Shown piece after piece: positions 44,690 to 64,000 of a DNA stretch of 64,000 bases (positions within the stretch are counted from its first letter, which is position 1; the number at the start of each line of letters is the position of its first letter). This DNA comes from an uncultured Desulfobacter sp. (GTDB lineage: Bacteria > Desulfobacterota > Desulfobacteria > Desulfobacterales > Desulfobacteraceae), in NCBI GenBank assembly GCA_963665095.1, contig OY762069.1:6016001-6080000 (forward strand). The letters are read 5' to 3'. Position numbers and translations under genes: made by a program. Below the pieces are notes generated by a model. It saw only the letters and a list, made by a program, of their open reading frames with translations, had not been told where the DNA came from and did not search any database.

Positions 44690-44744
44690 TTATACGATTT
44701 GAACGTATAAATAAATTGACTATTATACTTTCAAATCGTATAAA
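44690..44744 (+). promoter_or_regulatory. Promoter with two palindromic operators
   Basis: TTATAC-N9-GTATAA at 44690-44710 and 44723-44743; TTGACT (44716)-17 bp-TATAAA (44739). Confidence 0.7.
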
Positions 44745-45922
44745 TGTTTATGGAAGAAATTTTATATCAATACAATCCCTGGTGGGAAGACCCGGTTTTT
44801 AATACTGAAATTATACCCAGGGATCGCTATCTTGACAGGCTTATTCAATATCTGGACAACAAACAGATTATCTCTTTGACAGGCCTGCGGCGTGTCGGCA
44901 AAACAACGTTGATGAAATTGATCATCAAGACGCTGATCTTAAACGGGGTCTCTCCAAAATCTATTTTATATGTCAGCCTGGATGATTACCTTCTTCACCG
45001 GAACAGTATTATTGAAATTATTAATGAATACAGAAAACTTCACAAGCTGAAAGTCGAAGAAAAGATTTACCTTTTTTTAGATGAAGTGATGCATAAAGAA
45101 AATTTTCATATCCAGCTGAAAAATATTTATGACGCCCAGAACACCAAAATTTTTGCTGCATCCTCGTCGGCGTCAATGTTACGGGATAAAAAAGCCAGTT
45201 TGACCGGCCGTTCCATTACTGTTGAAATAAAGCCGTTAAACCTGGAAGAATATCTGCTTTTTAAAGGCATCGTGTTAAAAAAGCGGGATAAGCAATTATA
45301 TAAGTCATACTTTCTCGACTATATCAAAGATGGCGGGATGCCGGAAAATGTATTAAAGCCAAACCGGGAATACCTGATGAACTTAGTCGATGATATCATC
45401 CAGAAAGATATTACAGCGTTTCATGGCTTGAAAAATCATCAAATCCTCAAAGATTTTTTTCTGCTTCTTATGGAACGGAGCGGAAAACAGCTGAGCATCA
45501 ACAAGATAGCAAAAATATTGAACATTTCACCAGATACGTCTAAACGGTATTTAAACTATTTCGAATCCACCTATCTTATACATCTGCTTCCCCGATGGGG
45601 TAAAACAAATCAACAGCTGTTATCAGCAAAAAAAATATATGCTTCGGATCTGGGGATCAAGTATCTTTTTATGGGGGGAAGAGACTTCGGAAGTTATTTC
45701 GAGAATTATATTTATCTGGTATTACGTCATAAGAAAGGCTTGTTTTATTTATATGAAAATACGGTTGAGATTGATTTTTATACAGATGATGAAATTTTAA
45801 TCGAATCCAAATTTTATTCCGAACTTAATGAAAAACAGGCCCTGTTGTTTTCCCAATATCCAGCCCGAAAAAGAATCGTGATTGATTCTGTAGACAAACT
45901 ATCCCTTTTAAATGAGTTGTGA
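44744..45922 (+). CDS. AAA-14 ATPase with DUF4143 (wHTH plus PD-(D/E)xK-like) C-terminus
   Basis: GLRRVGKT, FLDEV, LTGR, GGMPE, KIY..D.G, FEN, EIDF...IESK; start may be ATG 44750. Confidence 0.9.
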   Translation: MFMEEILYQYNPWWEDPVFNTEIIPRDRYLDRLIQYLDNKQIISLTGLRRVGKTTLMKLIIKTLILNGVSPKSILYVSLDDYLLHRNSIIEIINEYRKLHKLKVEEKIYLFLDEVMHKENFHIQLKNIYDAQNTKIFAASSSASMLRDKKASLTGRSITVEIKPLNLEEYLLFKGIVLKKRDKQLYKSYFLDYIKDGGMPENVLKPNREYLMNLVDDIIQKDITAFHGLKNHQILKDFFLLLMERSGKQLSINKIAKILNISPDTSKRYLNYFESTYLIHLLPRWGKTNQQLLSAKKIYASDLGIKYLFMGGRDFGSYFENYIYLVLRHKKGLFYLYENTVEIDFYTDDEILIESKFYSELNEKQALLFSQYPARKRIVIDSVDKLSLLNEL

Positions 45923-49163: not shown

Positions 49164-49772
49164 TTATTCTGTAAACGAATTAACCTGACACAAACCATCT
49201 TCATTTTTAATGAAAAAAATTGGTTTCATGGTTTTATCAGCAAAATCATAAAGCACCAGTTCAGGATGATGGGTATCAAAGGCTTTTCCGAAAAAGAGGC
49301 AAATTGCATTCGAGGCGCATGGAAGTAAATGAATTTTATTAATCCCATAAGAGCATTTAAGGTGATGCAGTAGACGCTGCATGTCAGCCATAAATTCAAT
49401 GCCATTCTTGGGATGGCCTATCGCTCCATTTCCCATGTTATTTGCCTGAATTTTAATCGTTTTTAATTTTAACTGTTTTGCGTATCCGTCAAATAGGGGT
49501 GGGTGGTTGGTAAAACTTAAAGTTAAGACAATTTCGTCTTCGTTTTGTTCTAAATCTTCCATGCCCAATATATCATACGTTTTTTCTGAAGGAGTGTCTG
49601 ATGGCCATGTCCATTGGTTGCCATCCCTGAACCGGAGCATTGGAATGATTTCCTGCTTGTTTCCAATTTTTGCTCCTAAAGCAATTAATTGCGGCATGAG
49701 ACCGAAAGCAAAAAGAGCTGCTCTGAACTGGTTGCGTCCTATCAACGACAATATTTTTTCAGACGCATCTTC
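49164..49772 (-). pseudogene. cap5: CBASS HNH-SAVED effector, 3' part (SAVED C-terminus)
   Basis: ALFAFGLMPQLIALG, W.WP, IHLLPCASNA....FG; in frame with the 5' part once IS21 is removed. Confidence 0.85.
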
Positions 49773-49967
49773 GATTATGTCAGGGCCGTCTTGAAAATGC
49801 AGCCAAATCCCCGGTTTGAAAATGTATGTTCTTAGCTGGTTTTTCTTCTCTTAAAAATCAAATTTAAAAATTTCGTCTTCTTCATTTTTTTCCTTTCTTT
49901 GCCCTCTGCTTTTTTCCGTACATACTGATCTTATTCATGTCTGATTTGAATCGGAGGCAATATGTAG

Positions 49968-50534
49968 ATGGGACTACTCAAGAAAAGAAGGTGCCGAAAT
50001 TGTAGAAGATTATTCGCTCCTAATCCAAGAAATATAGACTCTCAAAAATACTGTTCCAGATCTGAGTGCAGAAAAGCCAGCAAAAGGTGCAGCCAGAAAA
50101 AATGGCTGAACAAGCCTGAAAATCGAAACTACTTTTGTGGGCCTGCCCATGTTGAACGTGTTCAGGAATGGAGAAAGAAGAATCCCGGATATTGGAAGAA
50201 GACCAAAAGCCCAGATACGTTACAAGACTCGATATTGCCCCAACAGGCTGAAAATAAACAGGATTCAACGCAATTCATGGACAATGCGTTACAAGATTTC
50301 TTACGGGCGCAACCTCCTGTCATTATAGGGTTAATCGCCAACTTTACAGGCAGTGCGTTACAAGATGACATCGCTTCCACGCTCCTTCGTATGAAAAAAT
50401 ACGGGCAAGACATTTTATGTTCACAACCCCAAAAAGAAGGAGAGCAAAATGATTGCAAAGGCCCCCATTTTACCATCCAGGGTTCGAAAAACACCCCAAA
50501 GCTTCAGTTGGATCGATCATCGCCTGGTGCGTGA
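49968..50534 (+). CDS. IS passenger protein with Cys-rich N-terminus
   Basis: CRNC...F.P.PR...QKYC...C, W...NP.YW; RBS GGAGG. Confidence 0.8.
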   Translation: MGLLKKRRCRNCRRLFAPNPRNIDSQKYCSRSECRKASKRCSQKKWLNKPENRNYFCGPAHVERVQEWRKKNPGYWKKTKSPDTLQDSILPQQAENKQDSTQFMDNALQDFLRAQPPVIIGLIANFTGSALQDDIASTLLRMKKYGQDILCSQPQKEGEQNDCKGPHFTIQGSKNTPKLQLDRSSPGA

Positions 50535-50835
50535 ACGGCACATTGACAGGTGTACACACTCCCAGTCCGCCCTATATCTGTTTCTGGTGTGTGTGGCCGA
50601 CAGTCAAGGCATCAGCTACTATGGAGATAAGGCGATCATGGATCGGCTGTGCATGGATTCTGATGGCCTGAAGACAGCACGTTCCGGGTTAATACAGAAT
50701 GGGCTGATTGCCTGGCAGAGACCTATTTACCAGGTGCTTGCCCTTGACCCTGCTCCTGGTAAATCAAAACGGCACGGCTCCATGCTGCGTCTTTCAGATA
50801 TTCTAAAAGCAGCAGCGGAGGGCAACCATGATTGA
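50449..50835 (+). CDS. IS passenger protein, probable winged helix
   Basis: FSWIDHRL, ALYLFL..VAD..G.SYY, AR..L...GLIA; RBS AAGGAG. Confidence 0.75.
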   Translation: MIAKAPILPSRVRKTPQSFSWIDHRLVRERHIDRCTHSQSALYLFLVCVADSQGISYYGDKAIMDRLCMDSDGLKTARSGLIQNGLIAWQRPIYQVLALDPAPGKSKRHGSMLRLSDILKAAAEGNHD

Positions 50836-52303
50836 TTACGAAACCTATGTTCAAATCAGAAATTACTTTACCCGAGACGGCCTGACATACAGCCAGATTG
50901 CCAATGCCCTTGATCTGGACCCCAGGACAGTTGCCAGGTGGGCCAACCTGAAAAGGTACCAGCCCAGACAGTCAGCCCCCAGAGAAAGCAAGCTTGATCC
51001 GTATAAGAACGCCATCCTGCATATGCTTGAAAAACATCCCTACAGTTCCCGCCAGATATTTCAACGAATCACCCAGGATGGTTTTGCCGGGGGCATCACC
51101 ATTGTTGAGGATTATGTCAGGAAGGTGCGGCCGCCCAAAACAAAGGCGTATTTGAAACTGAGTTTTGCTCCGGGTGAAGCTGCCCAGGTGGACTGGGGTT
51201 CTTATAGTACAGTAAGGGTGGGCAACACGACCCGGCGGTTGAGCTTTTTTGTGATGGTGATGTGCCACAGCCGCATGATGTACGTTGAGTTCACGGTCTC
51301 CCAGACCATGGAGCATTTTTTAGGCTGCCACCAGAATGCATTTGAGTTTTTTGGAAAGGTGCCGGAAAAGGTCATGGTGGACAATCTCAAATCCGCTGTT
51401 CTAAAAAGACTGCTGGGGAAAGCCCCGGTCTTCAACCCCAGATACCTTGATTTTGCAGATTATTACGGATTTACAATTGTTCCCTGTAATGTGCGCAAGG
51501 GTAATGAAAAAGGCCGGGTTGAAAATGCTGTGGGCTATGTCAAAAAGAATCTGCTCAACGGTCTTGAAATCCCTGATTTTAAGATCATGGAGCCCACCTG
51601 CAAACACTGGCTTGATACTGTCGCCAATGTCAGAACCCACGGAGAGACCGGTCAAAAGCCCGCAGAGATGTATGCCCTGGAATTGCCCCACCTATACCCT
51701 CTGCCGTCAGAACCCTATGATATCGGTGTGGTAAAGCAGGTACGGGCTTCAAGACAGTACAGGGTAGTCATCGATACAAATGCTTACACAGTACCCGCCC
51801 AGCTGGCAGGGGTGGCTTTGACTGCCAAGCTTTACCCTGATCGGATCTGCTTTTACCATGAAGACAAGTTGGTTGCCCGCCATGTCAGATCCTATGGCCG
51901 CAAAAACGACCTTGAAGATCCTGATCACTCTAAAATCCTTTTGAGCCAGCGCAAAAAGGCCAGAGACCAGGCAATTTATATGCGTTTTTTAAGCCTCTCT
52001 GACAAGGCCCGGGAGTATTACAGGCAATTGCAGAACAGGCGGCTTAACGCCTCCCATCATGTACGGCAAATCGTGGCCTTGAGTGAAATCTACTCCCGGG
52101 AACAAGTTGCCATGGCCATTGAAGATGCCTTTAAGTTCTCTGCATTCTCATGTGAATACATCGCCAACCTCCTTGAGCAGCGGGTTCGGTCTCCCCAGGA
52201 GCCCGGAGCCCTGCATGTTACACATAAAGCAGATTTACTGAACCTGACAATCCAGGAGCCTGATCTTAATATTTATACCGCCATAGGAGATAAAAATGCC
52301 TGA
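50828..52303 (+). CDS. istA: IS21 transposase
   Basis: HTH, PGEAAQVDWG, VDNLKSAV, EKGRVE. Confidence 0.96.
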   Translation: MIDYETYVQIRNYFTRDGLTYSQIANALDLDPRTVARWANLKRYQPRQSAPRESKLDPYKNAILHMLEKHPYSSRQIFQRITQDGFAGGITIVEDYVRKVRPPKTKAYLKLSFAPGEAAQVDWGSYSTVRVGNTTRRLSFFVMVMCHSRMMYVEFTVSQTMEHFLGCHQNAFEFFGKVPEKVMVDNLKSAVLKRLLGKAPVFNPRYLDFADYYGFTIVPCNVRKGNEKGRVENAVGYVKKNLLNGLEIPDFKIMEPTCKHWLDTVANVRTHGETGQKPAEMYALELPHLYPLPSEPYDIGVVKQVRASRQYRVVIDTNAYTVPAQLAGVALTAKLYPDRICFYHEDKLVARHVRSYGRKNDLEDPDHSKILLSQRKKARDQAIYMRFLSLSDKAREYYRQLQNRRLNASHHVRQIVALSEIYSREQVAMAIEDAFKFSAFSCEYIANLLEQRVRSPQEPGALHVTHKADLLNLTIQEPDLNIYTAIGDKNA

Positions 52304-53030
52304 TCTTGAGAAATGCCTGTCCCACTTAAAACTACCTTATATCAGGGAAAACTATGAGTCAGTGGCTACCCTGGCTGCCCAGAAGCAATGGAGCCACGTT
52401 CAATATCTATCAGAGCTTGCCAGGCATGAATCACTACTGCGCCATGATAAAACCATCCAGCGCCGTATCCGTATGGCCAAGTTCCCGGTAATCAAAACCC
52501 TGGACCAGTTCAACTGGTCATGGCCCAGAAAAATCAATCAGGCTCAGATCCAGAATCTGTTCAGACTCAAGTTCATTGAAGAAAAGGGTAACATTATCGT
52601 GATCGGCCCGGTCGGTGTTGGGAAAACACATATTGCGACTGCTTTAGGTTACCAGGCCTGCCTGAAAAACCATACGGTTCTGTTCTCTTCTGCCATTGAT
52701 ATCGTCAACAATCTGGTGGCAGCCCAGAAGGCGGGTCAGTTAAAGCAGGAACTGAGAAAATACCTCAAGCCAACTTTGTTGATCATGGATGAACTGGGCT
52801 ACCTGCCCATTGACAAGATTGGGGCAGACCTGTTGTTCCAAATTATCAGTCAGCGCTATGAGCAAGGAGCCATCATAATAACCACAAACCGGGTGTTCAA
52901 AGATTGGCCGGAGATCTTCAACAATGACATGACATTAACATCAGCTTTGCTGGACAGGCTTCTTCACCACACCGAGCCTGTGGTCATTGAGGGTAAGAGT
53001 TTTAGAATGAAAGATGTGACGGAAGAATAA
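52296..53030 (+). CDS. istB: IS21 helper ATPase
   Basis: GPVGVGKTH, DELGYLP, ITTN, LLDRLLHH, GKSFR. Confidence 0.96.
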   Translation: MPDLEKCLSHLKLPYIRENYESVATLAAQKQWSHVQYLSELARHESLLRHDKTIQRRIRMAKFPVIKTLDQFNWSWPRKINQAQIQNLFRLKFIEEKGNIIVIGPVGVGKTHIATALGYQACLKNHTVLFSSAIDIVNNLVAAQKAGQLKQELRKYLKPTLLIMDELGYLPIDKIGADLLFQIISQRYEQGAIIITTNRVFKDWPEIFNNDMTLTSALLDRLLHHTEPVVIEGKSFRMKDVTEE

Positions 53031-53129
53031 CAAAGCCGAGGCCGGTCTACATGCATCTGGAGGCCGGCCCTTTAATCGCCTACATTTTTAAACCGGGAGA
53101 TTTATGACATGTTCACGCCCCGCCTGACA

Positions 53130-54152
53130 GATTATTTTGGGCCAGAGAGAATGCAGTTGATCCGGTGACATAGTTTTTAAGAAATTATCATTGTCGCTAA
53201 TATCCATAAGACCGGTAGAATCCATTCTCCACTTCATTTTTGCCATACTCTGGTTGATCTGAATGTTACTTGGGGCTGCAATCGATGCCCTTTGCACTGG
53301 CCATGAAATTGAAAGCGCAGGGACCGGCTCATATGATAATCCATTGAGCAGCCTTGATACTGTTGTACAAAAATCTGCTCTCATTCTTGAAAGCCGATTT
53401 GCCGGGTAATCTATCGCCGCAATTTTATCAACCAGTCGGTGGTGTTTATCACACAATAAAAGAATGTTGGAAGGATCATCAGATAGATGATCCGACATTA
53501 CCACAATACCCCGTGGACCATTTTCAGATGAAGCGACATTATGGGCCAGGTATGCATAATTGCCTTCGTAACCTGTGGTTTCATCCATTGTTAGATTTGC
53601 CCCACAACCTTCAAACATGCAGCGACCATGGGCTTCTATATACACTGTCGTCTTGGTGTCTTTTGAGAAGCCCTTTCCACGCCCAGACTCTGGCCCTTTA
53701 AAAAATATTTTTTCAATTTGGTCCAACTCCTTGGAAATCCCCAATTCAATTGATTGCGCCTCGGCTTTTTTCCACAAGGAATCTATATCTTCCAAAGACT
53801 GGATTTGTTCCTGGCTGAAAAATTGCCCTTGGCAGGCCCTGAAAATTATTGGAGCTGTTTTATCAGAAATAAAAAGCCGTATGGCCGTTAAAGTCTCTTC
53901 AGGGGAACCAAGACAGAGGCGAAAGACAGCAACGACACGATCTGTTTGAAGCAGCGTAATCAAGGTTGAGCATTGTTTTCCAATATTTTGATCAATTAAA
54001 ATTCCCACATGAGACCATTGGATATGTTCAGCCACTAATTTATGATGTGCTTCAACAAGGCCCAATTCATCAAGCGGAGGATGAATCGTCTGAACATAAA
54101 TAACTTCTGTTTTGTTTGTTTTACCAACCATCAGCGTTGCAGTCTCCTTCAT
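53130..54152 (-). pseudogene. cap5: CBASS HNH-SAVED effector, 5' part
   Basis: GRCMFEGC, AHNVASSENGPRG, NILLLCDKHHRLVD; start overlaps the cap3 stop (ATGA). Confidence 0.88.
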
Positions 54153-54643
54153 GCTTTTATTTTGTATTCCCCAACAACCGTAAGCGAATTCCTGATTATT
54201 TTTTTCGTTCCCATCCAACAACGGATATGGGTCCGTCCAACAATTATAAAAAATAAATGCCTGCCATCATAAACTGATTTATTAAGAGCTTTGAACCAGT
54301 CTGATTTATCTATTTTAGAGTAATGAGGGTAGTCTTCTGGATGGGTGTGCCATAGCCCGACATAGGTAGATATTTTATTGGATTCCTGCCAGATTTCTTG
54401 AACCAGCTTTTCATGGGCGCTTGATCTGTAAAACATACACGCGCCCTGTTTATCTCCTGTTTGTGGCGGCGTAAATTGGTCTATCACCATCCGGCCACCA
54501 CGGATTAAATGTTTCCCGATTAAAGCACCGCCTGATTCAGGAAACGTGCGATCCGTTTGCTGAAAGCGGCATATCTGCTCTAAAAGCGTGTGGTCAAATC
54601 GCACTTTGCCAAACGTTTGTATGTTTATGATCCAGTCATCCAT
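54149..54643 (-). CDS. cap3: CBASS Cap3 JAB/MPN peptidase
   Basis: ESGG, YVGLWHTHPE, SKID, FIIVG; ATG 54643 overlaps the original cap2 3' end. Confidence 0.92.
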   Translation of the reverse strand: MDDWIINIQTFGKVRFDHTLLEQICRFQQTDRTFPESGGALIGKHLIRGGRMVIDQFTPPQTGDKQGACMFYRSSAHEKLVQEIWQESNKISTYVGLWHTHPEDYPHYSKIDKSDWFKALNKSVYDGRHLFFIIVGRTHIRCWMGTKKIIRNSLTVVGEYKIKA

Positions 54644-54728
54644 TATGGCACACCCCACAACTACAGGCTTTGTCATAGGCAGTTTCTTCTATCATGGCCA
54701 TTCCGTAATATCTTTTAGTCAACCCAAC
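54636..54728 (-). pseudogene. cap2: Severed 3' end of cap2
   Basis: (VG)LTKRYYGMAMIEETAYDKACSCGVCHNG-stop, in frame across the TSD. Confidence 0.88.
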
Positions 54729-54866
54729 TGAGAATGATCACAAAAAATCATGGAAAAATTAAAGATAATTTGCAAGATATGCCAGGGATGAGGCAGAAGC
54801 TCCCCCGTTTATCTCGCAAATAATCAATGGAACTTCTGCCCCTATTACCCTAACAGGGCAGGAGAT

Positions 54867-55442
54867 ATGCTATCAGAACTTATTAAAAACAAAAATCTTT
54901 TTTTCCATCTTTACGAAATCGATAAAAATACAGCAAAACAGTACAGACAGTTGCCTTGTCCGCATTGTGGAGGCCCCTTATATTTCAGCAATTACATGCG
55001 CAAGCCCCGGGGAGAGCCTGAGGGCGTGCCGGAGGAATTCTTTATTCAGTTCAGCCTATGTTGTGGAACCGAAGGGTGTCGCAAAAGATTGATGCCGCCG
55101 TCCTGCCGTTTTCTGGGGAGAAAAGTCTACTGGTTTGCAGTTATTCTGTGTGTTTTAACAGACTGGCAAAATACCAATGAAAAAATCACCGTTTATGATT
55201 TGTCCATACGAACTGGCATTAGCCGGAACACAATAAACCGCTGGCTTGCCTTTTTTCAGGATACATTTCCAGTGAGCCGAACCTGGCGAAGGCTTCGGGG
55301 GCAGATATCCGCTGGTGTCAGTAACAGCCGTCTGCCGTCAAGTTTCATCAATTATTGCCGGGCGGTGAAATCCAACGCCGAAAACGCACTTGTATCAAGC
55401 CTGATAATCTTATCAGGCGGGTCCAAAATCAGGGCCGGATAA
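54867..55442 (+). CDS. Zn-ribbon plus HTH accessory protein of the transposon
   Basis: CPHCGG, SLCC...CRKR, GISRNTINRW. Confidence 0.8.
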   Translation: MLSELIKNKNLFFHLYEIDKNTAKQYRQLPCPHCGGPLYFSNYMRKPRGEPEGVPEEFFIQFSLCCGTEGCRKRLMPPSCRFLGRKVYWFAVILCVLTDWQNTNEKITVYDLSIRTGISRNTINRWLAFFQDTFPVSRTWRRLRGQISAGVSNSRLPSSFINYCRAVKSNAENALVSSLIILSGGSKIRAG

Positions 55443-55548
55443 TCTCGCGCAGAGGATGAACATAGACAAATATATGCAGGCTGTTTTACCACCTGATTTC
55501 AGACGTTGATCCGAAATTTTAACCTGAAATTAAAAAGGAGCCTGATTT

Positions 55549-56994
55549 ATGAGTGGTAAAACACAGCACCCGGCAGACCTGTGGGCATTATTTCGCTTTT
55601 CGGTTATCGGCGGTTTACTGGCACGCCCTCCGGCAAAGGGAGAGTTGCAAAATGAACTGACCCGGCTCGCAGGTCAAATCTATTCTCATCCTGTGACGAA
55701 CAAACCGACCTGTTTTCATTTTTCCACAATTGAGGCCTGGTATTACAGGGCAAAAAATTGCCAGGACCCAATTCTGGCTCTGGGCCGTAAAGTTCGTTCA
55801 GATATGGGCAAATCCACAGCATTGAATGCTGAATTGATCCGCCTTCTTGGTGTCCAGTACAACACTTATCCGCAATGGAGCTATCAGCTTCATTGCGACA
55901 ACCTGGCAGCTGAAATCGCTGAACAGGGCCTGTGTGAGAATCCGCCGTCCTATGCAAGTGTGAGAAGGCGTATGGTTGAACGGGGTTGGAGAAAAAAGGC
56001 TTCCAAGAACAAAAATCAAACATCCGGACAGAAATCAGCTTTTAAGCGATTAGAAACGTATGAAGTCCGTAGTTATGAAACCGAAAACATCCATGAATTA
56101 TGGCATCTGGACTTTCACGAATGCAGCAGGCGCGTGGTGGACGAAAAAGGTCAGTGGCATACGCCCAAGGCATTGTGCATTCTTGATGATCGCTCCCGTC
56201 TGTGTTGTCATATTCAATGGTATTTGAATGAAACGGCAGAGGTTTTGATCCACGGCTTGTCCCAGGCGTTTTACAAAAGAGGGCTTCCCAGAGCCTTGAT
56301 GACAGATAATGGTTCTGCCATGATTGCTCATGAAACCGGCAACGGACTTAAACGATTGGGCGTCAGTCATGAGACCACGTTGCCATACTCGCCCTATCAA
56401 AATGGGAAGCAGGAAGCCTTTTGGGGTACACTTGAAGGCCGTTTGATCGCCATGCTGAGCCGGATGGATTCTTTGACCCTGGTATATTTAAATCAGGTCT
56501 CCCAGGCCTGGATCGAGATGGAATACAACAAGTCAACCCATGATGAAATTCATATGTCGCCATTGCAATGCGCCCTTGACGGCAAGGATGTGTCACGTCC
56601 TGCACCGGAACCTGAACAGCTTCAATTTTCGTTTACAGCCTGTGAATCCAGAAAACAGCGTCTGTCCGATGGTACCATCTCTTTGATGGGCATCCGGTTT
56701 GAAATCCCTTCACGGTTTAATCATATCCAGCGTCTTCATGTCTGTTTTTGCTCCTGGGATAAATCGGTTGCCTGGCTGATAGATAAACGAACCGGAAATA
56801 AGCTTGCCGCAATTTATCCCCAGGACAAGACAAAGAATGCTTCAGCAATCCGTCGTATCAAATCCACTCCGGATGAAATTAACCCTGGCCATGAAACCCT
56901 GTCCGGATCAGAACCGGCCCTGCTTAAAAAGCTCTTGTCCGATTATGCAGCAACCGGAATGCCTTGTGCCTACTTGCCAATGGAGGAAAAGTGA
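55549..56994 (+). CDS. DDE transposase (rve/Mu-like)
   Basis: ALFRFSVIG, LWHLDFH, LDDRSR, TDNGS, QNGKQE, YN...H. Confidence 0.93.
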   Translation: MSGKTQHPADLWALFRFSVIGGLLARPPAKGELQNELTRLAGQIYSHPVTNKPTCFHFSTIEAWYYRAKNCQDPILALGRKVRSDMGKSTALNAELIRLLGVQYNTYPQWSYQLHCDNLAAEIAEQGLCENPPSYASVRRRMVERGWRKKASKNKNQTSGQKSAFKRLETYEVRSYETENIHELWHLDFHECSRRVVDEKGQWHTPKALCILDDRSRLCCHIQWYLNETAEVLIHGLSQAFYKRGLPRALMTDNGSAMIAHETGNGLKRLGVSHETTLPYSPYQNGKQEAFWGTLEGRLIAMLSRMDSLTLVYLNQVSQAWIEMEYNKSTHDEIHMSPLQCALDGKDVSRPAPEPEQLQFSFTACESRKQRLSDGTISLMGIRFEIPSRFNHIQRLHVCFCSWDKSVAWLIDKRTGNKLAAIYPQDKTKNASAIRRIKSTPDEINPGHETLSGSEPALLKKLLSDYAATGMPCAYLPMEEK

Positions 56995-57818
56995 TGAACA
57001 GCAAACGATTATTGGCTTATTATGGATTGAAGTACAATCCTTTTTTACCAAATATTCCTGTGGACTCATTATGGCATCCACCCCGGATGGAGGCATTTAT
57101 TACACGCCTTGAAAATATGACCATGAACGGTGGATTTGCATTAATCGCCGGTGAACCCGGTCTTGGCAAATCCAAGACACTACAGGCGATTGCCCATCAG
57201 CTTGGCAAGCTTGATGAAGTCGTTGTCGGCGTTATGGAGCGCCCCCAAAGCAGCGTGGCCGATTTCTATCGGGAAATGGGGACACTGTTTGGTGTCAATT
57301 TGAGTCCGGCCAACCGTTACGGAGGGTTCAAAGATCTGCGGCAACGATGGAAAAATCATATTAAAACAACCCTGTTCAGACCCGTCCTGCTCATTGATGA
57401 GGCTCAGGAAATGCTTACCGGATGCCTGAATGAGCTTCGGTTGCTCAACAGTATGGATTTTGACTCCCAGAATTTATTGACCACCATTATCTGTGGTGAT
57501 ACCCGGCTGCCGGAACGGTTCAGAACCAGTGCATTGGTAGCCCTGGGGAGTCGACTCCGGTTCCGGTTAAAATTGGATCCTTATACCCGGGAAGAATTGT
57601 TGGATTATATAGCGCATTGCCTAAATCAGGCCGGAGCTCCTCAACTCATGACAAAACCTTTAATCACCGCTTTGGTAGAGCACTGTACAGGAAACTTACG
57701 GGTCCTCAATAATATGTCGGCAGAACTGCTTGAAGTGGGCGTTCAAAGAGAGCTGCCGCAACTGGATGAGAAACTTTTCATAGAGCTTTTTTCACTGAAA
57801 CCGTCGCCAACCAGATAA
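56994..57818 (+). CDS. ExeA/TnsC-like AAA ATPase
   Basis: YGLKYNPF, GEPGLGKS, LLIDEAQ, GNLR. Confidence 0.92.
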   Translation: MNSKRLLAYYGLKYNPFLPNIPVDSLWHPPRMEAFITRLENMTMNGGFALIAGEPGLGKSKTLQAIAHQLGKLDEVVVGVMERPQSSVADFYREMGTLFGVNLSPANRYGGFKDLRQRWKNHIKTTLFRPVLLIDEAQEMLTGCLNELRLLNSMDFDSQNLLTTIICGDTRLPERFRTSALVALGSRLRFRLKLDPYTREELLDYIAHCLNQAGAPQLMTKPLITALVEHCTGNLRVLNNMSAELLEVGVQRELPQLDEKLFIELFSLKPSPTR

Positions 57819-57829
57819 GAGGTATAAAA

Positions 57830-58072
57830 ATGACAATCAATGAAACACAACTTGAAAAAACAATGGCTGAAATTGTCGACGAGCTGGGCAATCTGGTCAT
57901 GGAGTTGATCCTTGTCAGTTTAAAAAAAATAAACTCGGAAAATCATCTTTTGACAGAATTGCTGGAGATCAAACAAGAGGAACAAAGAGAAAATGAATTT
58001 TATGGTTTTGGTGAAACGGAGCCGGGACATCCTGGGGAGGAAACCCGGCAAGGGATAGCCAAAAGCAGGTAG
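57830..58072 (+). CDS. Small acidic hypothetical protein inside the transposon
   Basis: RBS GAGG, 11 bp after the ATPase stop. Confidence 0.6.
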   Translation: MTINETQLEKTMAEIVDELGNLVMELILVSLKKINSENHLLTELLEIKQEEQRENEFYGFGETEPGHPGEETRQGIAKSR

Positions 58073-58266
58073 CATTGAATAATGCGCCGGGGGAAGCGGG
58101 GTTGACCTGCTTCCCCTTTCTGTATTATTCAAGCTTTCCTGCTCATGCCTTAAAAAACCCAATAAAATCAGTCGGAGCGCAGCGACATCTGCTAATCATT
58201 GAAAATACAGTTATGCCTTTCCCTGATTTATCCTGATTGTCGCTCCATTGATTATCGTGCTTCCTC

Positions 58267-59889
58267 TCACCCAACTCCGGTAATATTGGGATTTTTCCAA
58301 CTGACCACCTTGTTGAGCGCATTATATTTTATGGTTTCAATACAAAGCCTTGTCGTTATCATGGCGGTCTGGGATGAGTCCAAATAAGAAAACGGGGTGA
58401 AAACCCCTGCACAGCCTGTTAAATTTTTGGTCAGATGTTGGCCCGGCATGACAAGGTTCAACGGTGATGCCAATGAAAATTTACCTGCGCGCCAGAATTG
58501 GCATTCGTAACAACTTGAATCAAGATTAACAGATAGCGCATGGCCTCCGGCACTGGCGGCTTCGTTCCAGCAATAAACAATCTTTTTAAAATGGGCGGTT
58601 TTGAATGCTTTATTTAAATACAGGTTCGCTGCCGGTGATCCTACAGCGGAAACAATGACATCCGCATTAATCAAAACTCTTTCACTCAAAATGCTCTCAG
58701 CTCGCTTGGGAATGGCATCAACTTGGATATATGGAAGCTCTGTTTTCAAAAAATCGGCAAGCACATTCACTTTGCGAAATAAAGGGACTTTCCCAGTTTC
58801 TTGTACAGGTTCATAAGAAAGATATCTTCCTCCCAACCTGTGGCGGTAAATATTATCAATTTCTAAAGAATCATTATCAATGAGGATAAGGTGACCAACC
58901 CCCGCTTTGGCCAGCATCACCGAAATTTCAGACCCCACTGACCCACAGCCGATTATGGCAACGCTTGAATTTAAAAGTTTTGTATCCGCACCCCCACGTT
59001 CAAGAAGGTAGCCTTTGTCATGCCTGTTGATCAAATAGACTTTAACTTTCGAGTCCTGGGATTTTTCTTTCAGGGGATGAGGTCTGGGCTTGGGGGCTGT
59101 CAGCCGAAATAAAATAAGGCTTCTCATCCCTTTAGACCTTGGGAAGCCAAACAAAATATAATGCTCCCTGGCAGAAGATAATTTGCTTATAATCTTGTCT
59201 ATCTTCTTTAAAAACGGAGCTTCAACGAGCGACAAAATGTTATAAATATATTTTGAATCAAGATTATTGACGCCCTGTGGCGGCAGCATAGGATACTGCG
59301 TTGGTATATAAACGGCTTTAATGGTTTGAAACGCATTGATTTTTGTAAAATTGCTGTATTGTTCCGGCAGAGCCTGTCCGTCATCATAAACAAAAAAGGG
59401 TTCTGCGGCAGTCTGCTTTCCATTTGTGGGTCGCCAGATTTTCAAATACACCTTTTGGGGAATATCTGCCCCTATGACGTTTCCTGGAATACGATCACTG
59501 ATCGGTTCGAAAAAGCCCTCATACTCGTCAGTTAATTCCATCCTGTTAACTTTTAAAGAACCGAAATCCAGGAGATCAACAGCAGATTCAATAACCGTAC
59601 TGATGATATCCTTCGGGCGCGTATAATCGACGATGATAGAATCGCTTTCATCAATGCATAGCAGGCCTGTGGCATTCACATGGGGAATAGTGCCAATCAT
59701 GTCCTCTTCCAACAAAAAGACATGTGGTAGGGAGTATGGAAACAGATCGTCAAAAAAGAATCGGGTGCACCATCTTCTATTTTTCCCTTGCAGGGTGAAA
59801 TAAAACTGGGTTTCCTTATGATGAGAGGCATCTATCAGTAAAGGATGTACAAATGCTTCCACCAAGGCCTTTAACGGGCCTTCATTCAT
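58267..59889 (-). pseudogene. cap2: CBASS Cap2 E2-E1 fusion, C-terminally truncated
   Basis: E2 PHVNATGLLC; E1 IIGCGSVGS, DNIYRH, CYEC, catalytic GCAGVFTPF; stop codon supplied by the transposon end. Confidence 0.92.
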
Positions 59890-60890
59890 GCATTGTTTCC
59901 CGTAGTGAGGTATGGCTTTTTATTTGAAGCTCTGGCCTCCTCTTCTTCAACCAGCGGGAACTTATCCCCAAAAACCTGTCTGAAAATTTTACTTGCCTTG
60001 TGCCCATCCGCTTCATCCCGCGCCGCTTCAAGAGCCTCAACCAACGCTTCAATCTTATCGTAAAAGATATTGGTCTGAATTAAGGTCATTTTTTCATAAA
60101 CATTGCTGAAAGGCTCAACCGGTAAATCCGCATTTATCGATTGTTTGTATGCGCCTGATTGCTCATCCCATACCATAAAAAAGCTGTTCTTGATGGCGGA
60201 TACAATGGCAATCAGCGACTCAAGGTCATTCCCCTCCTTGTAGTTAAAATTCTTACCCGCCTGAATAGTCAGTCCAATAGACGGCGGCATGGCATTGCCA
60301 TCAACTGAAAAATGTTTTTCCTTCCAGGCTTTCAGGTAGCGAACGCATCGGCGGTATTGGCTTCTTTTTTCAGCTGTGTCAGAAATATTATTTACCCAAT
60401 CAATGAGTTGTTTGGGAGACGACTTTTCCCAGGTCGGGTCCGTGGCATGTTCTTTTCCCCAGGCAATGTGGTAATCGTCTGAATTGGAGGCATAAACAGC
60501 AAGATCTACATGGTATCCGTCAGAATATTTTACTGTGATACATGGGCGGCGGATAACAACGGTTCTATTGTGCCTGGTCAATTTATCCCGTATCAATTTT
60601 TTGAGTTTAACCGGCTCATATTCCTGATTTGTAATGTCAAAAACGATTCCAACATCAATGTCGTAATCATTATTGGGCGGGATTATTCCTGTATGCATGG
60701 CATAAGACCCCTGCCCGAAATATGAAAAAACCAGTTTTTTATCTTTGCCCGGAATTTTCTCATCTTTCAAGCCTTGCTTTAACTCCTTAATCAAAAGCTC
60801 CCGTTTATCCCGAAGTTTCTGCTCCTCTTCATAGGTACCCAGCTTGATTGCATCATGAAATTTAATAAATTCATTTTGTAAATTAGGCAT
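59886..60890 (-). CDS. CD-NTase (cGAS/DncV-like cyclic oligonucleotide synthase)
   Basis: QGSYAMHT, DYDIDVG, PCITV, HVDLAVY, RYLKAW, FGDKFP; first gene of the cap2-cap3-effector operon. Confidence 0.93.
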   Translation of the reverse strand: MPNLQNEFIKFHDAIKLGTYEEEQKLRDKRELLIKELKQGLKDEKIPGKDKKLVFSYFGQGSYAMHTGIIPPNNDYDIDVGIVFDITNQEYEPVKLKKLIRDKLTRHNRTVVIRRPCITVKYSDGYHVDLAVYASNSDDYHIAWGKEHATDPTWEKSSPKQLIDWVNNISDTAEKRSQYRRCVRYLKAWKEKHFSVDGNAMPPSIGLTIQAGKNFNYKEGNDLESLIAIVSAIKNSFFMVWDEQSGAYKQSINADLPVEPFSNVYEKMTLIQTNIFYDKIEALVEALEAARDEADGHKASKIFRQVFGDKFPLVEEEEARASNKKPYLTTGNNA

Positions 60891-60991
60891 ATGACCTTAC
60901 ACTCTCCAAATTGATTAAAGTTAACTAAATTCAAAATAATGCGAATACTTTCTTTGTCAATGTTGAGAATGCAAATAAATATAATTTTATT

Positions 60992-61042
60992 TTTTATCCT
61001 ACGATAAAATAGTATTTTGTGATAAATATACCTCTATATTTA
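60992..61042. promoter_or_regulatory. Candidate WYL-regulator operators
   Basis: TTTTATC-CTAC-GATAAAA (60992-61009) and TAAATATA-CCTC-TATATTTA (61023-61042); AT-rich, so chance is possible. Confidence 0.45.
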
Positions 61043-61069
61043 ATAAAATAAAAATTTATAAGGGTTCAG

Positions 61070-61948
61070 ATGCGCTGGAGCATAAAACAACGAATTGAAT
61101 TTATAGAAACTCGATTATACTGGGAAGGCAAAATCAGCAGAAAAGACCTTACCAACTACTTTGACATTTCTATTCCCCAAGCAACTAAAGACATTAAAGC
61201 CTATATTGAAGAGGCCCCTGGTAATATCCGCTATGACAACAAGGCGAAACAATACGTTGCCACAGAAGAATTCCAACCAATCCTGATTCCTGCGGACAGT
61301 GAATCTTATCTGAAAAGGCTGTTGACAAGTGATGTGGAACAAGGTGATTTTTTCTGCGGTAATATGCCTTCATTTTATAGCGCCCCATGTATTCAACGAA
61401 AAATTGATCCTCAAGTACTTAAATATATTTTAAGAAACATAGAAGACGGTAACGCAGTTTATATTGAATATCAGTCCATGAGTGGACCAGGACCGGGCTG
61501 GAGATGGATTACCCCTCATGCCATTGGGTTTGATGGGTTTAGATGGCATACCAGGGCATTTTGCCACAATGATCGAAAATTTAAAGATTTTAATCTTGGA
61601 AGAATCTATAAAACCAGGGAATCCAAGCCTCATACCATAGACGTTTCCATTGATTTCGAATGGGTTACTGATATTACTTTTAATATCGAACCCCATCCGG
61701 ACCTTACCAGGGAACAAAGAAAAGGCATTGAACATGATTACGGGATGACCAACGGTTTTCTTGAATTCGAAGTCAGAGGTGCCTTTGTTTTCTATATGCT
61801 TAAAAGGCTAAATCTTGGACCGGGCCACGAACTAAACGCCCCCATTCAGCAGCAGATAGTCCTTAAAAACTTTGAACAAATTGAAAATCAACGGCAAATG
61901 CTTGAAAAAATGTCGGCAAACAAAATTGAAGAAACCATACCAAGGTGA
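61070..61948 (+). CDS. capW: wHTH-WYL-WCX transcriptional regulator (CapW/BrxR-like)
   Basis: R..FIE..LYWEG.I.R.DL...F.IS..QA..D...Y, YQSMS, PHA...DGFRWH.RAFC, FKDF.LGR, DYGM. Confidence 0.9.
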   Translation: MRWSIKQRIEFIETRLYWEGKISRKDLTNYFDISIPQATKDIKAYIEEAPGNIRYDNKAKQYVATEEFQPILIPADSESYLKRLLTSDVEQGDFFCGNMPSFYSAPCIQRKIDPQVLKYILRNIEDGNAVYIEYQSMSGPGPGWRWITPHAIGFDGFRWHTRAFCHNDRKFKDFNLGRIYKTRESKPHTIDVSIDFEWVTDITFNIEPHPDLTREQRKGIEHDYGMTNGFLEFEVRGAFVFYMLKRLNLGPGHELNAPIQQQIVLKNFEQIENQRQMLEKMSANKIEETIPR

Positions 61949-62005
61949 TAATAAAGGCATATCTAACAAATTTTCATAATCGGAGCTGTTAATAAGGAAT
62001 TGTCA

Positions 62006-64000
62006 ATGAAAACCATTCAAAGTGCATGTGAATTAGATCCCAAAGCCCTGGATATCAATGTTGGGGATCAGATTGAAAAGCTGGATGAAGTGATCAGCGA
62101 TACCGACGGCCGGGAATATTTTAAGAAAACCTTTATTACCGAGGGTATGAAAGTACTGCTGACAAAAGGAATGGCCAGATTGGCCGGAAAATCAGCAGAT
62201 TCCATTTTCCATCTCAAGCAGGCCATGGGCGGTGGTAAAACCCATTTAATGGTTGGCTTTGGGCTTCTGGCAAAGGATGCGGACCTTCGAAACGCGCTCA
62301 TCGGCACCATGCCTTATCAGGGGGACTTTTCTGCTGCAAAAGTAGCCGCGTTTAACGGTCGTAACAATCCGGGGAACTATTTTTGGGGGGAACTGGCAAG
62401 GCAGCTGGAAAAAGAGATATTATTTAAAGAGTATTGGGAGTCCGGAGCCAAAGCCCCTGATGAACAGGCCTGGCTTTCGTTGTTTGAAGGGGATGAGCCG
62501 GTCCTTATTTTAATGGATGAAATGCCTCCCTATTTTCATTATTACGCCACCCAGAGTTTAGGTCAGGGTACAGTGGCGGATGTTGCCACCCGTGCATTTT
62601 CCAACATGCTGACCGCTGCCCAGAAAAAGAAAAACGTCTGCATTGTGGTTTCGGACCTTGAGGCCGCCTATGATACCGGCGGGAAACTGATTCAGCGTGC
62701 GTTGAATGACGCTTCCCAGGAACTGGGCCGGGCAGAAATCAGTATTACACCTGTCAACCTTGAATCCAATGAAATTTACGAAATATTGCGGAAACGGTTA
62801 TTTGTAAGCCTGCCGGACAAAAGTGAAATCAGTGAAATTGCCGCAGCCTACGGTGATAGACTTGCCGAAGCAGCCAAGGCAAAAACCGTTGAGCGAAGCG
62901 CCGAGGCCCTGGCCCAGGAAATAGAGTCCACTTATCCTTTTCATCCCAGCTTTAAAAGCATTGTGGCTCTATTTAAAGAAAACGAAAAATTCAAGCAGAC
63001 CCGGGGCCTTATGGAGTTGGTGTCCCGGCTTCTTAAATCGGTATGGGAAAGCAAAGAAGATGTCTATCTCATGGGGGCACAGCATTTTGACCTTTCTATC
63101 CACGAAGTCCGGGAAAAACTGGCTGAAATTTCATCCATGCGGGATGTCATTGCCAAAGATCTTTGGAACTCATCGGACAGTGCCCATGCCCAGGTCATTG
63201 ACATAAACGCCGGTAACAATTATGCCAAACAGGCAGGAACTCTGCTGCTTTTGGCAAGCCTTTCCACTGCTGTTAATTCAGTAAAAGGGCTGACGGAAAT
63301 GGAAATGCTTGAATGTCTCATAGATCCCTTGCATCAGGCTGGGGTCTATCGGGCGGCGTTTGAACAACTGCAAAAAGATGCCTGGTATCTGCATCAAACC
63401 CAGGAAGGCAGAAACTATTTTGACCACCAGGAAAATCTGACCAAAAAACTTCGGGGATATGCGGACAGGGCGCCCCAACCTAAAGTGGATGAATTGATCT
63501 GTCATCGCTTAAATGAGATGTATAAACCCACCACCAAAGAAGCCTATGAAAAGATTTTGCCCCTGCCGGAGATGGATGATGCCCAGGCCGCGTTGAAATC
63601 TTCCAGAACACTGCTCATTATCAACCCGGACGGAAAAACCCCGCCTGGCGTCGTGACAAAATTTTTTGAAGAACTGGTTAATAAAAATAATGTACTGATC
63701 CTCACCGGAGACAAAAGCTCCATGGCGGATGTGGATAAAGCCGCCCGTCATTTCTATGCGGCCCAAAAGGCGGATAATGAAATTTCAGCTTCCCATCCCC
63801 AGCGCAAGGAGCTGGATGAAAAAAAGGCCAATTATGAGCAGGATTTCCAAGCCACCATCCTGTCCGTATTTGATAAACTGTTTTTCCCCAGTAACAAAGC
63901 AGGTGAAGACCTCTTACGGCACAAGGCCCTGGATCTTTCATACCCCTCAGGGGAACCGTTTAACGGGGAGCGGCAGATTATTAAAACATTAACCGCAGAT
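62006..64000 (+). CDS. DUF499 ATPase, anti-phage-associated (partial, runs off window)
   Basis: Manual translation MKTIQSACELDPKALDINVGDQIEKLD..., QAMGGGKTH, ILMDEMPPY, YEILRKRLF, YPFHP, FKQTRGL; RBS AAGGA. Confidence 0.9.
   Translation, partial: MKTIQSACELDPKALDINVGDQIEKLDEVISDTDGREYFKKTFITEGMKVLLTKGMARLAGKSADSIFHLKQAMGGGKTHLMVGFGLLAKDADLRNALIGTMPYQGDFSAAKVAAFNGRNNPGNYFWGELARQLEKEILFKEYWESGAKAPDEQAWLSLFEGDEPVLILMDEMPPYFHYYATQSLGQGTVADVATRAFSNMLTAAQKKKNVCIVVSDLEAAYDTGGKLIQRALNDASQELGRAEISITPVNLESNEIYEILRKRLFVSLPDKSEISEIAAAYGDRLAEAAKAKTVERSAEALAQEIESTYPFHPSFKSIVALFKENEKFKQTRGLMELVSRLLKSVWESKEDVYLMGAQHFDLSIHEVREKLAEISSMRDVIAKDLWNSSDSAHAQVIDINAGNNYAKQAGTLLLLASLSTAVNSVKGLTEMEMLECLIDPLHQAGVYRAAFEQLQKDAWYLHQTQEGRNYFDHQENLTKKLRGYADRAPQPKVDELICHRLNEMYKPTTKEAYEKILPLPEMDDAQAALKSSRTLLIINPDGKTPPGVVTKFFEELVNKNNVLILTGDKSSMADVDKAARHFYAAQKADNEISASHPQRKELDEKKANYEQDFQATILSVFDKLFFPSNKAGEDLLRHKALDLSYPSGEPFNGERQIIKTLTAD

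Follow-up and report, generated by a model that had tools for sequence, protein, structure and literature searches.

In an uncultured Desulfobacter sp., a gene for a CapW-type repressor stands between two sets of defence genes, a type II CBASS on one side and a MANTIS operon with a nested Menshen system on the other. The window, that is the whole stretch of 64,000 nucleotides analysed (contig OY762069.1 of assembly GCA_963665095.1, positions 6,016,001 to 6,080,000 of the forward strand), carries a WYL open reading frame (ORF), here called capW, at 61070..61948 on the + strand. It lies back-to-back with a CD-NTase gene (59886..60890, - strand) across 179 bp, and the ATG of a DUF499 ATPase gene follows at 62006 on the same strand, 57 bp past the capW stop codon. 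The initial annotation had described this divergent pair and the DUF499 gene downstream with no obvious terminator, and both descriptions are borne out. Judged from its sequence, the locus is a rare, recent promoter-capture join of known parts, and a single CapW switch probably, by a modest preference over the alternatives weighed below, co-regulates the CBASS arm and the MANTIS/Menshen operon. The gene identities, their layout, the join at a former -10 box and two insertions in the CBASS are direct observations.

The evidence for promoter capture lies in the spacer between capW and mtsA, the DUF499 gene (61947..62005, + strand), which is homologous to the 5' leader of a MANTIS operon in another genome of the genus (G199) from the -10 box of that operon onward. 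The DUF499 protein of G199 is 85% identical to that of the window, and its operon lacks a WYL gene and has TTGAAT-17-TATAAT in front of it. Spacer and leader agree at 33 of 47 ungapped positions, a value reached by 0 of 1000 shuffles; 10 other DUF499 leaders gave 21-24 matches on the same comparison. The homology begins at the -10 box, with none upstream, where the window has capW coding sequence instead of a -35. The -10 reads GATAAT (five of six bases kept), and its G lies in the capW stop codon. Identity with a 79% capW orthologue (L004) ends just before the same join point. A consensus scan found no promoter-like site on the + strand of the spacer, and no terminator-like site on that strand in 60700-62200. 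Fourteen spacer bases of the window are extra, being absent from the RNA-library relatives described below. The simplest reading, drawn from one relative, is that MANTIS was likely joined behind capW with loss of its own promoter; the join looks recent and local, though it is shared by relatives about 5% diverged. A capW remnant upstream of the G199 -10 box was considered as well and rejected, since that DNA has no homology to the capW 3' end.

The capW product (292 residues; Pfam WYL) has the wHTH-WYL-WCX architecture and full-length similarity of a CapW, and the gene lies upstream of and opposite to the CBASS core genes, as capW does. The best match among solved structures is CapW (phmmer, 7TB6, E 1.4e-59 over residues 1-273; 7TB5, 3.2e-54; 9C5G, 3.9e-51), while BrxR (7T8K) matches more weakly (2.5e-39). 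A YQSM motif occurs at residue 134 and RWHTR at residues 158-162; S136 and R178 align with the Ser and Arg of the single-stranded DNA (ssDNA) pocket of solved CapW, as named in PMC11662680, and RWHxR is kept. The recognition helix reads SIPQAT, and the helix pattern PQ(A/S/V)TKD defines a subclade holding 26 of the 30 closest proteins (the other four give no pattern match); a quick tree of the CapW relatives was used descriptively only. The gene is single-copy in the genome.

As the characterised family suggests, a CapW homodimer would bind the 179-bp gap, repress both directions and be released by ssDNA. MANTIS and Menshen would probably be transcribed by read-through from the capW promoter, because MANTIS likely has no promoter of its own and the spacer no terminator, and they would be repressed together with CBASS until ssDNA releases CapW.

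Three marine-sediment RNA-library runs from two studies (X1, X2, X3) contain relatives of the locus at about 93-96% identity. In X2 a single 5657-bp contig (~95.5% identity) extends from 61062 across mtsA and mtsB and into mtsC; the capW-mtsA spacer is likewise bridged by X1 and X3 contigs. At the divergent gap the contigs break: those of the X2 left arm end at 60906, and those of X1 and X3 at 60860 and about 60880 on the left of the gap and at 61049 and 61129 on its right. Breaks at the gap together with bridging of the spacer agree with a pair of divergent transcripts of which one carries both capW and mtsA, which is a weak hint from contigs that give no strand or start. Another run, of unrecorded kind (X7), crosses the gap without differences, and a minor contig of it aligns only from 61913 onward. 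Flanking chromosomal genes have no RNA-contig cover, an observation that is uninformative.

The divergent intergenic region (60891..61069, 179 bp; 22% G+C, 78% A+T) contains a predicted sigma-70 promoter toward the CD-NTase (60933..60960, - strand; TTGACA, 16 nt, TATTTT; consensus scan), the -35 of which is kept in the 79% orthologue. Two palindromes in this gap had been put forward in the initial annotation. Both exist with perfect arms and lie upstream of the predicted leftward -35: palindrome 1 at 60992..61009 has 7-bp arms and overlaps block 2 (below), and palindrome 2 at 61023..61042 has 8-bp arms and is strain-specific. As operators they were rejected for arm length not above chance and lack of conservation. 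An 8-bp arm is reached by 13.6% of 500 dinucleotide shuffles of the gap, and palindrome 1 beats shuffles (p<0.05) in only 1 of 10 homologous upstream regions, at a non-equivalent place, palindrome 2 in 0 of 10. The gap holds eight perfect-arm palindromes, partly overlapping, a count reached by 2.4% of the shuffles.

Two conserved blocks are better operator candidates, although they were chosen after inspection and their conservation may partly be that of promoter sequence. Block 1 (60941..60961), a candidate half-site, takes in the -35 of the leftward promoter and the spacer after it, and part of its conservation is due to that promoter. It beats shuffles (p<0.05) in 8 of the 10 homologous upstream regions, lies at -127 to -133 in the four closest, and looks like the left half-site of the CapW-clade operator together with its spacer; only a half-site is present, its right partner being degenerate in the window. 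Block 2 (61000..61024, 70-46 bp before the capW ATG), a candidate for either an operator or an element of the capW promoter, forms an imperfect 10-5-10 palindrome with 7/10 arm matches and has the half-site spacing given for Acinetobacter BrxR. Only the two closest orthologues keep it, at 19/25 and 20/25 (2 of 10 homologous regions overall), and it is the top genome match of a matrix made from two orthologues, which is partly circular. The clade operator itself was modelled as a matrix from 49 CapW-clade upstream regions (L042-L119), ~90% of which hold a 28-bp operator-like palindrome ~75-90 bp before the start codon.

The rightward arm continues past the window end in locus L002, where positions equal window positions minus 60000. 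The gene mtsA (62006..64000, cut by the window end and ending at L002 5071) encodes a DUF499 AAA+ ATPase of 1021 residues (NCBIfam NF042962, 1464 bits against a cut-off of 1200). On the same + strand follow mtsB (DUF3780; L002 5071-5661), mtsC (DUF1156 methyltransferase; L002 5661-8699) and mtsD (PLD nuclease-SNF2 helicase; L002 11986-14706), with NF042961, NF042963 and NF042964 also above their cut-offs. All four MANTIS components thus occur in one operon, as identified by both NCBIfam and PADLOC. Between mtsC and mtsD sit NsnA (DUF262), NsnB (ATPase) and NsnC in that order (L002 8714-11974, + strand; PADLOC 3.6e-115, 6.2e-113 and 2.1e-70), a trio with gene names from the PADLOC profiles that matches the Menshen system. 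The seven rightward genes overlap or are at most 14 bp apart; they and capW are full-length, and Walker and DPPY motifs were found in the right-arm proteins. Of the two defence systems initially proposed, the CBASS and the DUF499 system are real, and Menshen makes three that adjoin or lie behind capW; the full MANTIS operon and Menshen past the window end had been missed, as had two insertion sequences in the CBASS. MANTIS is the renamed Gao_RL (10.64898/2026.09.23.753747), classed as BR type 2 (PMC12839542), and is described as hemimethylating adenine in a 6-bp site and restricting at inverted sites (10.64898/2026.09.23.753747). In the X2 relative, contigs of mtsC lose their match mid-gene and resume later (L002:5839-7514), as for a swapped target-recognition region, and a different gene starts after mtsC.

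The leftward arm is a type II CBASS with a complete set of core genes (CD-NTase, Cap2, Cap3 and HNH-SAVED effector; Pfam, PADLOC), in which neither the effector nor Cap2 is intact. The CD-NTase frame is intact (Pfam DncV-like and SMODS; PADLOC cyclase profile 4.6e-114; GS and DxD motifs); in 160 other genomes of the family it has no match at 1e-40. The gene cap2 (E2-E1; 58270..59889, - strand) is cut near its 3' end by a 3541-bp insertion sequence (54729..58269, + strand; rve transposase and AAA ATPase) with a 6-bp target duplication and 12 other full-length copies in the genome. The last 28 cap2 codons, with a cysteine cluster, are stranded at about 54636-54722, and the element separates cap3 (JAB isopeptidase; 54149..54676, - strand; Pfam, PADLOC) and the effector gene from the leftward promoter. 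Between profile positions 327 and 337 the effector is split by an IS21-family element of 3352 bp (49778..53129, + strand) with a 5-bp target duplication and 9 other full-length copies, leaving a 5' part (53130..54221, - strand; PADLOC effector profile positions 3-327 of 529) and a 3' SAVED part (49164..49777, - strand; Pfam SAVED; PADLOC profile positions 337-527 of 529). An X2 contig joins cap2 directly to the sequence before cap3 with no insertion, so that a relative has an uninterrupted allele. The 3541-bp element contains a Cys-rich ORF, the rve transposase, an ExeA-like ATPase and a small ORF, and no IS family model scores above its cut-off (best NCBIfam IS481, 90 bits against 224). The IS21 element has two extra ORFs (188 and 128 residues, no Pfam match) ahead of istA and istB. 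An AAA_14/DUF4143 ATPase gene (PADLOC PDC-S01, 1.1e-71) at 44744-45922 of the window marks the left edge of the low-GC island, and no tRNA genes occur in the 54 kb spanned by L001-L003.

The exact CBASS-WYL-MANTIS trio was found at this locus only, plus pieces in the RNA-library relatives; in the loci compared the pairing is rare and not a conserved design. A 68% capW orthologue (L127 / G496) is directly followed by Menshen, 71-78% identical to that of the window, with no divergent CBASS. Behind another orthologue are PDC-S06 and Qat (L128), and more distant capW orthologues head Ssp or BREX genes. Metagenomes supplied 80 CapW loci, forming 49 clusters; none gave a tblastn match to the CD-NTase, and no relative was found on viral contigs. 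Among 40 downstream genes tested, 21 co-directional ones match PADLOC at 1e-40, six of them HmaA. One locus added by hand (L115) has a DUF499/HmaC ATPase gene directly behind a CapW-clade gene, and two-armed layouts occur as HNH nuclease-WYL-HmaA (L051) and HEC-01A-WYL-DrmD-like (L101). A CapW-clade gene that heads a DUF499 system or stands between two systems is therefore not unusual.

Further observations were made on these loci. In L127 the end of a CRISPR-like repeat array (L127:1-320) precedes the capW orthologue and Menshen (L127:904-4996). In L045, L049, L062, L069, L071, L084/L085 and L087 a gene of ~885 codons on the - strand is divergent from the CapW-clade gene and is followed, where the contig reaches, by one of ~1050 codons; the other side varies (BREX, SIR2, GmrSD, Snf2). 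The ~885-residue protein has no Pfam match at 1e-8 in its first 600 residues, and the pair may, as a guess, be helicase-nuclease-like. The loci L082, L115, L107, L093, L102, L092 and L116 form one 90%-identity CapW cluster with differing downstream genes, which suggests a swap site behind capW. The CapW-clade genes of L043/L046-L048, L117/L118 and L171 are divergent from an unannotated ~385-codon gene, behind which lies a large E2-E1 gene (Pfam Prok-E2_A and ThiF in L171), and no CD-NTase match was found in this group. In L172 a CapW-clade gene is divergent from a type II CBASS with a patatin effector, and on its other side is a convergent Qat-like operon, read from ORFs only.

Several findings weigh against joint control of the two arms. 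A search for the CBASS-WYL-DUF499 order, proposed with the initial annotation, revealed no conserved synteny: a WYL match was absent from all 47 non-self DUF499 loci, which came from 36 genomes. Of these loci, 29 have at least 1.4 kb upstream, and the remaining ones are short or partial or repeat one and the same place; MANTIS-type operons on two annotated plasmids are also without a WYL gene. The 79% orthologue has a CBASS on its left and a tyrosine recombinase on its right. Selection for joint control is thus not demonstrated, given that recombinase and the 0 of 29 loci with a WYL gene. The argument for an ancestral promoter comes from one relative, and a -10 with one mismatch could still fire weakly. 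A contig is no proof of one transcript, DNA may be present in RNA libraries, and the X1 and X3 assemblies are fragmented elsewhere; among the matches listed, no contig joins both arms, and their adjacency in the relatives is deduced. The clade operator matrix has no significant match in the window gap (59% of shuffles score as high), a result qualified by the different recognition helix of the window subclade; nor does it match significantly in the L004 gap or around the capW-mtsA spacer. The abortive arm is likely dead in this strain because two insertions cut cap2 and split the effector, and the leftward CBASS is accordingly regarded as likely non-functional, so that the switch would by now act chiefly on the 13.6-kb rightward arm. 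That one sensor co-regulates both systems, as initially proposed, stays plausible with the decapitated MANTIS promoter, the spacer free of terminators and the contigs that bridge it, and is weakened by the broken abortive arm and the poor palindromes.

The arms may instead be chance neighbours in a defence island: CapW would then regulate nothing but CBASS and its own gene, and MANTIS would still have a weak constitutive promoter in the spacer or the capW coding sequence. This is rather unlikely, although it would agree with the MANTIS-type operons that do without WYL in 29 of 29 other loci and on the two plasmids, and with the five of six -10 bases kept. A methylation-based system would presumably need steady basal expression, and the BrxR coding sequence has been credited with a cis role of its own. 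The replaced -35, the changed first base of the -10 and the absence of a + strand promoter in the scan speak for promoter loss instead; without a terminator, moreover, transcripts from the capW promoter would still add to mtsA expression, and RNA contigs of the relatives bridge the spacer.

It is less probable, and would be somewhat surprising, that CapW acts like BrxR on the rightward arm alone, with block 2 as operator and the leftward CBASS promoter, at least 40 bp away, escaping control; such escape, or plain cost, may then have made the two disruptive CBASS insertions advantageous. In favour of this reading, L127 retains block 2 and has its 68% orthologue at the head of Menshen with no divergent CBASS, and close relatives stand ahead of co-directional Menshen, PDC-S06/Qat, Ssp and BREX genes. 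Moreover, the window has a degenerate right partner of block 1 and a CBASS that is broken twice. Yet 8 of 10 homologous regions conserve block 1, which lies in the leftward promoter, against 2 of 10 for block 2, a single repeat sufficed for BrxR repression (PMC9122601), and the nearest orthologue of known context is also divergent from a CBASS. Decay of the whole island, with a regulator that no longer matters, is very improbable: the two recent CBASS insertions, in a genome with many identical IS copies, would suit it, whereas capW and the seven rightward genes are full-length, four MANTIS genes score above curated cut-offs and contigs of relatives occur in RNA libraries. Co-regulation of both arms by CapW remains the favoured reading.

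Precedents for such control are in print, namely repression in both directions by CapW, islands of several systems under BrxR and WYL genes that stand between two systems. The CapW-CBASS loci of E. coli upec-117, S. maltophilia C11 and P. aeruginosa PA17 have a regulator of the same family in the same divergent position before the CD-NTase (10.1101/2022.01.04.474952, PMC11662680), and their operator is described as a palindrome overlapping the -10 of the CBASS promoter. Repression by E. coli CapW acts in both directions, and in upec-117 the reverse one of this bidirectional pair of promoters likely drives capW together with the co-directional cap17 behind it (10.1101/2022.01.04.474952; PMC9122588). 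Here, in contrast, the genes behind capW form a seven-gene restriction-type operon instead of a CBASS effector, the recognition helix differs and the CBASS is broken. In BrxR-headed islands the WYL repressor is first in a co-directional operon, as capW is here (PMC9122601; 10.1101/2021.12.19.473356; 10.1101/2025.11.13.688357), on pEFER one BrxR controls both BREX and a type IV restriction enzyme, and islands of up to three systems have been noted (PMC9122601); the window protein, however, is closer to CapW, and its second system lies on the opposite arm. The initial annotation regarded the locus as two regulatory arrangements combined. They are not separate modes, given that E. coli CapW represses both directions and that CapW-clade genes commonly head co-directional defence operons, including DUF499 ones.

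All four MANTIS genes, mtsA-D, are present in the described order; unlike described MANTIS operons, this one is headed by a WYL gene instead of its own promoter or the Arc/CopG-like MtsR, and the MANTIS paper does not use the term WYL in its main text (10.64898/2026.09.23.753747). The Menshen genes keep their order and match their profiles strongly, and differ in being nested in MANTIS. Priming through independent WYL repressors, separate for the restricting and the second system, has been proposed (10.1101/2025.11.13.688357), and a figure legend of that report names systems flanking the same WYL protein. No paper on a CBASS-WYL-MANTIS locus was found in the literature searched; Supplementary Tables 13-15 of the same report, outside the search, may hold a case of CBASS with Gao_RL.

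What is new is the CBASS-CapW-MANTIS pairing, all parts and the concept being already known. The locus adds no new protein family or mechanism, and with its CBASS broken in this strain its value is that of a clean test case. It is a tentative idea, and a somewhat doubtful one, that promoter capture hard-wired immune priming: restriction by MANTIS/Menshen would yield ssDNA, which would release CapW and raise the restriction arm, along with the abortive arm where a relative has an intact CBASS, and joining at a -10 box may be a general route by which WYL switches gain systems. One repressor that holds restriction-type and abortive systems would allow the priming model to be tested in one construct, and the join documents, at the level of single bases, the way in which an existing switch can gain control of a defence operon.

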